Virus record (IMG/VR): IMGVR_UViG_2534681978_000015
Length of the DNA stretch: 6,220 bases
Source of the DNA: a virus
Taxonomy: Duplodnaviria; Heunggongvirae; Uroviricota; Caudoviricetes
Strand: one strand, 5' to 3'
In this document: positions 3,072-4,928 of the stretch, piece by piece
How the letters are laid out: each line of letters starts with the position of its first letter
How positions within the stretch are numbered: position 1 is the first letter of the stretch
Notes under the pieces: generated by a model
The model's input: the letters and a program-made list of their open reading frames with translations, nothing else
The model's database searches: none
Told to the model about the DNA's origin: nothing
Translations under genes and position numbers: made by a program

Positions 3072-4928
3072 TCATCCCGTGAAATAACGGTTGTCCGGAC
3101 GCACCTTTTCAATGCGTTCTGCTGGTCTGGACGCACCACTCTCGTTAATTTCAATACGAACTTCATCCGGATCGCGGAACCGCACCGTCGGGTAAATACT
3201 CCCGTCGCCATCATCCGCATTTTCCGGCTGTGGCTGTGCCTCCGGTCTGGCCTCCCGCTGAGGGCGAAGCACATCACGTATTGCCTGTAACTGCTGCTCT
3301 TCAGTATCAGTACGCCCTTCCTTCTGGCTGAGTTTTCGGTATTCCTCAAGCAGTTCAGGGCGCGGCTTCGCCTTCAGCTCATCCATCACCGCCTGTCGCT
3401 TCGCCTGTTCATCCAGTTCATTCAACAGCTGGCTGGCGGCTTCCCGGCGATGAACGGCAGACGTGTCTCCCTCATGTGCCATATCCGCATCAGCATACTG
3501 TTCCAGAAGCTGCTCGCGATTCATCCCCTGCATAGATTCACGATGCTGTGCCACCGGATCAACCGGTTCGGGTTGCGGAGCCGATTCGTCCTGAGGAACG
3601 CTTTCAGCCTCACGCATGGCTGCTTCATCTGCCGCCTGACGTTTTCCACGATATCCGGCAGCCGCACCGAATGGTGCCCCCATTGCAGCACCAAGGGCTG
3701 CACCTTCGATCGTTGCGTCAGCCACGCCCTCCCACGGTGACACATCCATTCCGGCGGTCTCACGCAATGCCGTGTTTTCCTGATAGCGTGAATAGCCACC
3801 CTGCGCCGCATTAATCGTCCCCTGTTCCGTGGCATTTCTGACAATGCCGCTTTTAACGGTCTTCGCCGTGCCCCGCATCGCCAGATTAAGCAACTGAGCA
3901 TCGCCCAGTTTTGCCGCCATGGCATTCACAGCCAGCAATTCAGGATCGGTTGCCAGCTGCGCACGCACCTCATCGGCAACACGCTCTTTTGCCAGATCCA
4001 TTTTCTGGCGATCAGTAAGCTGCGCGTGCTGCGGATCGGCATCAATGGACAAAAACGTCTGCTGAAATTTCGGTGACTGCGCCAGCTCAGAATAATCAGC
4101 ATTAAGAACAGCATCTGCCGCCGCCATTGCACTCCGCCCCTGCGCACTGACAGTGGAATGGGTGATCAGGCCCGCCTGGAAAAAATCCGGCATTTTTTTA
4201 TCGACAGCTTCGGCTGCCAGTGCCGTGGCTCTTTCCGGCTGCATCCCTACCGCGATGTATTTTTTCTCCAGCCCGGCGGTCAGCACTTTTCGCAGAGTGA
4301 CATCACCCACCTTTCTAGCCACACCGCCAGCAACCATATCAGGTACAAGCGCACCAATCAGGTTTACACCCTTCGCCACCCAGACCGCAGAATCATTATA
4401 GCCTTCGGTCATCGGCGTATTCAGCGCACGAACTGCACCCGGCGACATCTTACCGGTCAGCCATTCATCAGTGGCTTTGGCACCATCACTGACAGCCTTA
4501 CCGGTTGCCTTCAGACCTTTACCGACAGTATCAGTAACCGCGTTTTTGCCATCAGGCAGGGTATCGATGACCTCATCAGCCCCCCTGCTGCCACCGGCAA
4601 AAATATCCTGCACAGTTGCGACACCCGGCAGCCCCATACGGCTAAACTCATTTAAAATACGCGCCCCTGTTTTTACCGGGCTCTGAATCATCGCATCACC
4701 GAGTCCACGGGCCATTTCCCCTGTTCCCCGGACGGACTGGGCGAAACCTTTACCCATTGTTGGCAATACATCGCCCAGGCTGAACGACGTACTGTTATCC
4801 TTCCAGCGATTCGGATCAGAGAAAAATGCTTCATAGCTGTCAGTTTCGCCGGGTTGCTGAATGTTCAGGCTGTTACGATTCTGGTTACCGAGTTGCGCCT
4901 CAGGACGCTGTTCCTCTGAATAGGCCAT
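3072..4928 (-). CDS. 618-aa Ala/Gly/Gln-rich protein with a (GxxxG)4 glycine-zipper hydrophobic segment and a charged helical C-terminus; candidate membrane-inserting ejection/internal-virion or tape-measure-like protein
   Basis: ORF track 3072..4967 (631 aa). I place the start at the second ATG (4926-4928, MAYSEEQ...) because a GGAG sits 5 nt upstream (plus-strand ctcc 4934-4937), whereas the first ATG (4965-4967) abuts a terminator-like hairpin and has no SD. Stop is TGA at 3072-3074. No cysteine after the proposed start. Confidence 0.85.
   Translation of the reverse strand: MAYSEEQRPEAQLGNQNRNSLNIQQPGETDSYEAFFSDPNRWKDNSTSFSLGDVLPTMGKGFAQSVRGTGEMARGLGDAMIQSPVKTGARILNEFSRMGLPGVATVQDIFAGGSRGADEVIDTLPDGKNAVTDTVGKGLKATGKAVSDGAKATDEWLTGKMSPGAVRALNTPMTEGYNDSAVWVAKGVNLIGALVPDMVAGGVARKVGDVTLRKVLTAGLEKKYIAVGMQPERATALAAEAVDKKMPDFFQAGLITHSTVSAQGRSAMAAADAVLNADYSELAQSPKFQQTFLSIDADPQHAQLTDRQKMDLAKERVADEVRAQLATDPELLAVNAMAAKLGDAQLLNLAMRGTAKTVKSGIVRNATEQGTINAAQGGYSRYQENTALRETAGMDVSPWEGVADATIEGAALGAAMGAPFGAAAGYRGKRQAADEAAMREAESVPQDESAPQPEPVDPVAQHRESMQGMNREQLLEQYADADMAHEGDTSAVHRREAASQLLNELDEQAKRQAVMDELKAKPRPELLEEYRKLSQKEGRTDTEEQQLQAIRDVLRPQREARPEAQPQPENADDGDGSIYPTVRFRDPDEVRIEINESGASRPAERIEKVRPDNRYFTG
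3661..3714 (-). other. Glycine-zipper segment GAALGAAMGAPFGAAAGY inside gene B
   Basis: Hand translation of 3661..3714 gives Gly at every fourth residue across five positions, embedded in an Ala-rich hydrophobic stretch and flanked by charged residues. Confidence 0.7.

Follow-up and report, generated by a model that had tools for sequence, protein, structure and literature searches.

A conserved glycine zipper ends the N-terminal domain of a giant cysteine-free protein of Stx-converting phages, a domain remotely related to that of N4 virion RNA polymerase

Results

The window encodes the beginning of a giant phage protein

We analyzed a 6,220-nucleotide (nt) stretch of DNA, called the window throughout, from a virus assigned to Caudoviricetes (IMG/VR record IMGVR_UViG_2534681978_000015), and within it a glycine zipper encoded in an open reading frame (ORF) designated gene B. 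The long ORFs of the window are on the minus strand only. The window matches 186 Shiga toxin (Stx)-converting phages of the 933W/phi24B/phage 86 type (Traversvirus) at 80-99% identity; DNA identity is 90-99% in 130 of the 186 matching phage records and 80-90% in the other 56. A preliminary description, made from the letters of the window, treated gene B as a gene in its own right. It is instead the frameshift-truncated N terminus (the first 617 residues) of an ORF of ~2,783 amino acids (aa): positions 1-617 of the PHROG profile phrog_616 (2,793 positions) match gene B, positions 617-1652 match the adjacent gene C, and in phages 86 and phi296 the gene B and gene C regions form a single ~2,783-aa coding sequence (CDS). 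The coordinates of the features discussed below are collected in Table 1.

Table 1. Features of the window and the observations that define them (aa numbering from ATG 4928)
Feature	Position	Strand	Basis or remark
Gene A, phrog_601, function unknown, Cys-free	4998-6134	minus	directly upstream of the giant gene
Terminator-like hairpin and T-run between gene A and the Shine-Dalgarno sequence (GGAG)/ATG 4928	4946-4965	minus	ΔG -18.4 kcal/mol, z -2.5
N-terminal "header" domain, ~430 aa, all-alpha, Ala/Gly-rich, Cys-free	3639-4928	minus	AlphaFold2 model (predicted local distance difference test score, pLDDT, 72.8), HMMER, hhalign to N4 gp50
Most hydrophobic segment of the domain, AVWVAKGVNLIGALVPDMVAGGVARK	4314-4391	minus	aa 180-205; KD19 (Kyte-Doolittle hydropathy) 1.38, highest in the protein
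Extended conserved motif G-V-x5-E-G-G-x2-G-x3-G-x3-G-x3-G-x-R-G-K-R	3639-3728	minus	aa 401-430; 61-sequence alignment
Glycine-zipper core, GAALGAAMGAPFGAAAGY	3651-3704	minus	encoded peptide, 18 residues, read from the sequence
Acidic Pro-rich linker, then charged helical region, to the artefactual stop	3075-3638	minus	aa 431-617
Private 1-nt insertion, GG to GGG, giving TTCACGGGATGA	3076-3078	minus	alignment with phage 86 and phi296
Gene C, rest of the giant ORF in the other frame, runs off the window	2-3079	minus	frame open from 3373 to 2; phrog_616

The break between genes B and C comes from one extra G. The window reads CACGGGATGA where its relatives read CACGGATGA, which shifts the frame and creates the stop codon that ends gene B. 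None of the related phages examined has the insertion; among the matches listed (15 of 424 E. coli records), all were 99.8% identical, with 400 record bases against the 401-base query, and exact look-ups of the truncated gene B product in a public gene index returned no match. The last 91 nt of the window (6130-6220), which match no Stx phage and take the place of the first ~43 codons of gene A, contain homopolymer runs (A9, G7, C11, A11, and T8) among CTCAGATA and TATCTGAG pieces. This tail looks like contig-end or assembly junk, which argues that the sequence quality of the window is low. Because the insertion is private, its product is unindexed, and the 91-nt end is homopolymeric and unmatched, the frameshift is likely a sequencing or assembly error or a private pseudogenizing mutation. 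Programmed frameshifting at the gene B/gene C junction was rejected, since all relatives have one continuous frame.

The giant gene starts at ATG 4928 (M14 of the listed ORF) rather than at 4967, because the PHROG and RefSeq proteins start there, a GGAG lies 6 nt upstream, and the longer extension crosses a hairpin, and also because distant homologues begin with MAY, MVY, or MAD.

The encoded protein is the polyvalent protein of 933W/phi24B-type Stx phages, and its orthologues are phage 86 gp35 and phi24B gp47. These are the same gene as the window copy, with the same domain order, but unlike them the window copy has the private frameshift. In phage 86, gp35 (L001:5576-13927; 2,783 aa) carries LPD5, LPD1, MuF_C, and LPD38 in one CDS, and Traversvirus orthologues are annotated "LPD38/LPD5 domain-containing protein". 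Two of these domains lie in the window, both in gene C (LPD5 at 1358-1789, 4.8e-44; LPD1 at 638-877, 2.9e-23). Several LPD domains, together with adjacent tail-fiber and other late genes, are what Iyer et al. 2017 described for polyvalent proteins. Cysteine is absent from genes A, B, and C (window 2-6134) and from the whole of phage 86 gp35. Mass spectrometry found phi24B gp47 in virions, and its authors proposed it as an ejection protein that forms or contributes to a trans-periplasmic conduit, listing its organization inside the capsid as an open question (bioRxiv 10.64898/2026.04.10.717836). The words "glycine" and "transmembrane" occur 0 times in that preprint and in Iyer et al. 2017 (PMC5512222).

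Gene B encodes five glycines in strict i+4 register

We used the glycine zipper pattern of Kim et al. 2005, GxxxGxxxG or (G,A,S)xxxGxxxG, with at least three Gly or small residues at i+4 spacing. Minus-strand translation confirms Gly at i, i+4, i+8, i+12, and i+16 in GAALGAAMGAPFGAAAGY, and these five residues, which conform to the pattern, are aa 409, 413, 417, 421, and 425. The core spans aa 409-426, or aa 422-439 of the listed 631-aa ORF. The preliminary description had recognized this string correctly but placed it at 3661-3714, which misses the frame and is displaced by 10 nt; read in frame, the closest minus-strand interval, 3660-3713, gives TIEGAALGAAMGAPFGAA, and the plus strand of 3661-3714 reads AAPNGAPIAAPRAAPSIV. 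Other properties ascribed to the region were borne out: its flanks are charged (DVSPWEGVADATIE upstream, RGKRQAADEAAMREAE downstream), and the 618-aa product contains no Cys and is all-helical by AlphaFold2 prediction.

The 618-aa protein is 14% Ala and 8.6% Gly. Shuffling the whole protein 20,000 times produced a chain of at least five Gly at a spacing of four in 46 cases (0.23%), and shuffling the local 38-aa segment equally often did so in 21 (0.1%).

Within an N-terminal header domain, conservation is highest at the zipper

The zipper ends an N-terminal domain, which we call the header, for which there is no curated family in Pfam or NCBIfam; an NCBIfam search likewise found no family for gene A or gene B. 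Two word-indexed searches for homologues were dominated by assembly fragments from E. coli and Salmonella, without any distant relative. An exhaustive HMMER search of 1.84 billion representative proteins, for which the profile was built on the first ~500 residues, gave 104 hits. Of these, ~60 are giants of 2,000-4,700 aa, invariably matched at their N terminus; named examples are prophage proteins from Pectobacterium, Vibrio, and Enterovibrio. The matches of the header in BFVD are also the first segments of giant phage proteins. The giant homologues fit the definition of polyvalent proteins given by Iyer et al. 2017 (PMC5512222). Fourteen of them were scanned for cargo: LPD38 is present in nine, and LPD39, a Sno-type helicase, ddrB-ParB, methyltransferases, glucosaminidase, and GGDEF domains also occur. 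Cys is absent from 52 of 57 giant homologues (2,000-4,700 aa); the one hit with many (P0135, 29 Cys) is a marginal match (E 7.9e-4). Since the header is always N-terminal in giants whose cargo varies, a delivery module fits it better than an effector.

An alignment of 61 sequences (~20-30% identity) shows the highest conservation at the zipper, and the Gly periodicity is kept rather than lost among homologues, with Gly 80-100% conserved. The frequencies are 90% for G401, 82% for V402, 95% for G413, 100% for G417, 87% for G421, and 80% for G425; position 427 is R in 66% and K in 11% (R/K 77%). Small residues lie on the face adjacent to the Gly, and I, V, L, or M stand between the Gly positions. 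In close E. coli and Salmonella variants the x positions vary and the Gly never change, and across the 14 full-length giants just five columns of the N-terminal domain are invariant, G413, G417, and G421 among them.

The extended motif places an acidic flank before the apolar core and a basic cluster (RGKR) after it. Across the family the core averages 42% Gly, lacks D, E, K, R, N, Q, and H altogether in 26 of 61 sequences, and has a net charge of 0 in most members. The mean net charge is -1.9 over the 15 aa before the core and +1.3 over the 6 aa after it, and the 45 aa that follow the basic cluster carry -9 here and -6.4 on family average, being negative in 98%.

AlphaFold2 predicts a helix-loop-helix of aa 358-390 and 402-442, with the highest confidence at aa 371-410. 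The second helix spans the zipper at pLDDT 67-87, dropping to 67-73 within the motif. The hydrophobic moment of the core is 0.04 here (family mean 0.11), and the core is apolar on all faces.

The header is a remote homologue of the N4 gp50 N-terminal domain

The family profile aligned with gp50 of phage N4, its virion RNA polymerase (vRNAP), at an hhalign probability of 95.5% (E 1.5e-8). The extended alignment pairs window aa 31-430 with N4 97-449 over 332 aligned columns. No reversed or block-shuffled N4 control scored above 21 or exceeded a probability of 0.7%, whereas the native sequence scored 64. A weak match to phrog_2206 ("virion RNA polymerase") was also seen (E 9.8e-4), and HMMER alone made no connection between the header family and the N4 family. 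On the strength of this profile comparison, the header domain is a remote homologue of the N4 vRNAP N-terminal domain. The two are alike in character: both the N4 domain (~1-906/919) and the header are all-helical, Gly/Ala-rich, and N-terminal in a giant Cys-free protein, which here is encoded among virion genes. N4 gp50 and DEV gp71 have no cysteine (PMC11445570).

N4 gp50 is packed in the capsid, and its N-terminal domain, unresolved and flexible in two cryo-electron microscopy (cryo-EM) studies, has been implicated in injection and membrane association (PMC13434306, PMC13492108). One of these studies called the domain "likely membrane-spanning", with predicted membrane helices at 224-278, found that it enters nanodiscs, and assigned it to the inner-membrane complex of the ejectosome (PMC13434306); the other, in which the domain was likewise not resolved, proposed membrane tethering (PMC13492108). 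The most hydrophobic segment of the header (Table 1) is the counterpart of the start of N4 gp50 224-278, hhalign placing N4 ~221-280 on window aa ~179-240. The cargo differs, being RNA polymerase in N4 gp50 and LPD5, LPD1, MuF-C, and LPD38 in the giant studied here. The vRNAP domains (vRNAP_dom and N4_RNAP_helical), present in N4 gp50, are absent from phage 86 gp35 and from 14 of 14 giants scanned.

A second conserved Gly-rich segment of the header lies at window 4695-4775 on the minus strand (aa 52-78; family consensus GDxxKAxGxGALxxxxGxGE). It aligns with N4 gp50 ~114-140 (GDIATGVGLGFVNTLGGIGALGAG), a part that overlaps the stretch of highest hydrophobicity in the N4 N-terminal domain.

The motif resembles known glycine zippers in a different protein context

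We compared the zipper with transmembrane glycine zippers, with the Pfam families Gly-zipper_YMGG (PF13441), Gly-zipper_OmpA (PF13436), and Gly-zipper_Omp (PF13488), and with Romo1 and Bacteriocin_IIc. All share its grammar of Gly at every fourth position, small residues on the adjacent face, I, V, L, or M between the Gly, and charged flanks. The gathering thresholds were missed, at 13.0 bits for Gly-zipper_YMGG (cut-off 28.9) and 11.8 for Gly-zipper_OmpA (cut-off 27), and Gly-zipper families matched in only 2 of 27 header-family members (best E 0.019). These matches and that to Romo1 (E 0.08) are below the cut-offs, and we regard them as resemblance only. The usual context of a Pfam glycine zipper is a small membrane protein or lipoprotein, whereas here it is an internal helix of a 2,783-aa protein packaged in soluble form. 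Neither the protein nor the family profile had a significant match in sequence searches of the PDB; a weak profile match of the zipper to a haemagglutinin fusion-peptide region (E 0.47) was set aside as a matter of composition.

T7 gp16 and P22 gp20/gp16 are inner-membrane ejectosome components, and the role that we propose for the header would be the same; no sequence or fold similarity between these proteins and the giant protein was detected, and the analogy is functional only. In the T7 and P22 ejectosomes, contact with the inner membrane is made by the largest of the ejected proteins, which has no canonical transmembrane (TM) helix (summarized in PMC13434306). A full-text search of the literature found no paper tying glycine zippers to phage ejection proteins.

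Neighboring genes and other features

Gene A has no relative in Pfam, NCBIfam, or PDB and no sequence similarity to N4 gp51 (E 1.0). Two genes upstream of the giant gene, outside the window, phage 86 encodes the 83-aa gp33 (L001:15273-15524), annotated "bacteriocin". It ends in a 33-residue glycine zipper, IGTGIGTGAAIGASVGGPVGAVAGAVIGGIAGSLF, and the protein is a near-threshold member of Gly-zipper_YMGG (E 9.4e-6). A "bacteriocin homolog" was found in phi24B virions and dismissed as a contaminant (10.64898/2026.04.10.717836). By analogy with N4 gp52, proteins of the gp33 type may be a small membrane component of the ejectosome. The gene order small membrane-type, mid-size, giant (gp33/gp34/gp35) parallels gp52/gp51/gp50 of N4, a parallel of gene order only because gene A is unlike gp51.

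The hairpin upstream of the giant gene has a 7-bp stem with 6 GC pairs followed by T7. It overlaps the 13 codons by which the ORF is spuriously extended at its 5' end, and it may attenuate the transcript that enters the 8.4-kb giant gene or stabilize it.

Two further observations concern the cargo domains. Within LPD5, at window 1505-1573 on the minus strand (aa 603-625 of the frame-0 ORF), Pfam gives a weak match to Arm-DNA-bind_4 that stays under its cut-off (E 1.7e-4; 21.5 bits, cut-off 22.3). The annotations of MuF-C (aa 1740-1831 of phage 86 gp35) conflict: it is a metallopeptidase, perhaps peptidoglycan-degrading, in the phi24B preprint and has a PBECR (RNase-like) fold in Iyer et al. 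2017.

Discussion

A candidate anchor or oligomerization helix at the inner membrane

Our preferred interpretation, to which we assign a probability of roughly 0.5, is that the zipper, as the conserved closing helix of the header, serves as an anchor or oligomerization helix at the inner membrane. We favor it because the helix is uniformly apolar, has a Gly-plus-beta-branched grammar, and is flanked by a charge dipole, and because the N4 domain has membrane affinity. Strings of GxxxG with beta-branched residues are reportedly tied to the packing of TM helices (Senes 2000; Kim 2005). The evidence for virion packaging and for the membrane affinity of the N4 domain is taken from the literature; membrane insertion and oligomerization of the zipper helix specifically are what we infer.

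Under this interpretation, the giant protein would leave the capsid largely unfolded once the tail opens, and its N-terminal helical domain would engage the inner membrane in the way that has been suggested for the homologous domain of N4 vRNAP. The ~18-residue uncharged helix, with one all-Gly face flanked by small or beta-branched residues, could then pack tightly on like helices or on partner ejection proteins, in or at the bilayer. Such packing would anchor the protein, the RGKR cluster and the long acidic linker would mark the membrane boundary, and the variable cargo (here LPD5, LPD1, MuF-C, and LPD38) would lie beyond it, on the cytoplasmic side.

Several observations weigh against a membrane role. 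The zipper has a KD19 of 1.07, below the classical TM threshold of 1.6, its summed Hessa ΔG is +7.7 kcal/mol and its Wimley-White octanol value +7.4 kcal/mol, and no hydrophobicity scale that was applied predicts a canonical TM helix there. The apolar core extends over no more than 18 residues, with a conserved Glu or Asn before it. The helix with which it forms a hairpin, aa 358-390, is polar and has an invariant Y382 and N385, which would suit a role in soluble packing. In N4, the equivalent of the zipper (GALYGFGSAGVV) is degenerate, unlike the motif here, and hhalign maps the predicted membrane helices at 224-278 to window aa ~182-238 and not to the zipper. The preliminary description had named a soluble glycine-rich loop without amphipathic or TM character as an outcome that would count against it. 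AlphaFold2 gives a helix and not a loop; the segment is not amphipathic and falls below classical TM thresholds. The other such outcome that it named, a loss of the Gly periodicity, is not seen in any homologue examined.

These scales were calibrated on N4 ejection proteins. The predicted membrane segments of N4 gp52 have a KD of 0.90 and a Hessa value of +7.9, and N4 gp50 224-278 has a KD of 1.29 and a Hessa value of +7.8, so that the zipper (KD 1.07, Hessa +7.7) equals predicted N4 membrane segments in hydrophobicity. N4 gp52 needs detergent for solubility, and it is the gp50 N-terminal domain as a whole that enters nanodiscs (PMC13434306). Since those segments score no better, the scales do not discriminate for ejection proteins.

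Alternative roles of the zipper helix

Alternatively, the zipper may never enter a membrane, and its Gly face may let the helix of aa 402-426 pack on the polar helix of aa 358-390 (QQYxxN) in a water-soluble bundle, which would stabilize the header fold or a binding site in it. We consider this possible, though on balance unlikely. Ejection proteins must be soluble in the capsid, and GxxxG packing is found in soluble proteins too. The predicted helix-loop-helix, most confident across the turn, the invariance of Y382 and N385 along with G413, G417, and G421, and hydrophobicity under TM thresholds are all consistent with such a bundle. The composition of the core argues against it: a Gly content this high is unfavorable for a helix in water, and a core that is 42-61% Gly and has no polar face (moment ~0.1) would be unusual as a stable helix there. 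The charge dipole that flanks the core and the membrane affinity of the homologous N4 domain (PMC13434306) also speak against it, and the failure to resolve the flexible N4 domain in two cryo-EM studies (PMC13434306, PMC13492108) argues that it is not a rigid bundle.

The zipper could also be a compliant Gly-rich joint between the header and the acidic linker, easing beads-on-a-string packing and threading through the ~30 Å tail channel. The motif stands at a domain boundary, averages 42% Gly, and leads into a low-complexity linker that is acidic and Pro-rich, all of which would suit such a joint, as would the fall of pLDDT to 67-73 within the motif, and a beads-on-a-string model has been proposed for N4 vRNAP (PMC13434306). 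A joint, however, needs neither a strict i+4 register nor invariant Gly nor conserved hydrophobics between them, the neighboring unconserved linker is already flexible, and AlphaFold2 gives a continuous helix; we judge a hinge decidedly unlikely.

That several zipper helices ring up through their Gly faces to form an inner-membrane conduit for DNA or protein, the stronger claim of the preliminary description, is very unlikely, even though the evidence for an anchor applies to a pore as well. Glycine zippers are said to line homo-oligomeric channels such as those of MscS and VacA (Kim et al. 2005), and the phi24B authors' proposal that gp47 forms or contributes to a trans-periplasmic conduit also favors a pore. 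Each chain, however, has only one such helix, the helix has no polar side to face a lumen, and with ~4 vRNAP copies per N4 virion (PMC13434306) a ring would be far too narrow for double-stranded DNA. An anchor or oligomerization role is more plausible than a DNA pore for this reason, that with few copies per virion a ring of single helices would hardly be as wide as the duplex. Finally, a chance low-complexity Ala/Gly run in a protein rich in both residues, without specific function, is extremely improbable, given a shuffle probability of ~0.2%, and is already refuted by the conservation of the Gly positions across the 61 divergent sequences while their neighbors vary in close variants.

A wider delivery module and its significance

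A broader conjecture builds on the anchor or oligomerization helix. The header may be a widespread, as yet unmodeled self-delivery module that unites N4-like vRNAPs with the giant Cys-free polyvalent proteins that Stx phages and the prophages of Vibrio and Pectobacterium encode, its zipper oligomerizing in the inner membrane as an anchor or gate through which unfolded cargo threads into the cytoplasm, toxin-like. Taken as a whole this is quite unlikely. The small Gly-zipper protein encoded two genes upstream would perhaps be the partner of the zipper in such a module.

The motif type and the protein are both known. The zipper as the hallmark of an unmodeled header domain of Cys-free giants is not described in searchable papers, and neither is the remote homology of the header to the N4 vRNAP N-terminal domain. 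The present analysis corrects the gene model, gene B being a frameshift fragment of a giant gene, and defines a domain (~aa 1-430) that some 60 clusters of giant phage proteins have in common. In two cryo-EM studies of 2026 the N4 vRNAP N-terminal domain stayed unresolved, and the zipper offers a short, nearly invariant handle that can be mutated. Through the remote link to N4, experimental results would be transferable between the N4 and Stx-phage systems. Stx phages spread Shiga toxin genes, and the header domain is a candidate Achilles' heel of their infection.

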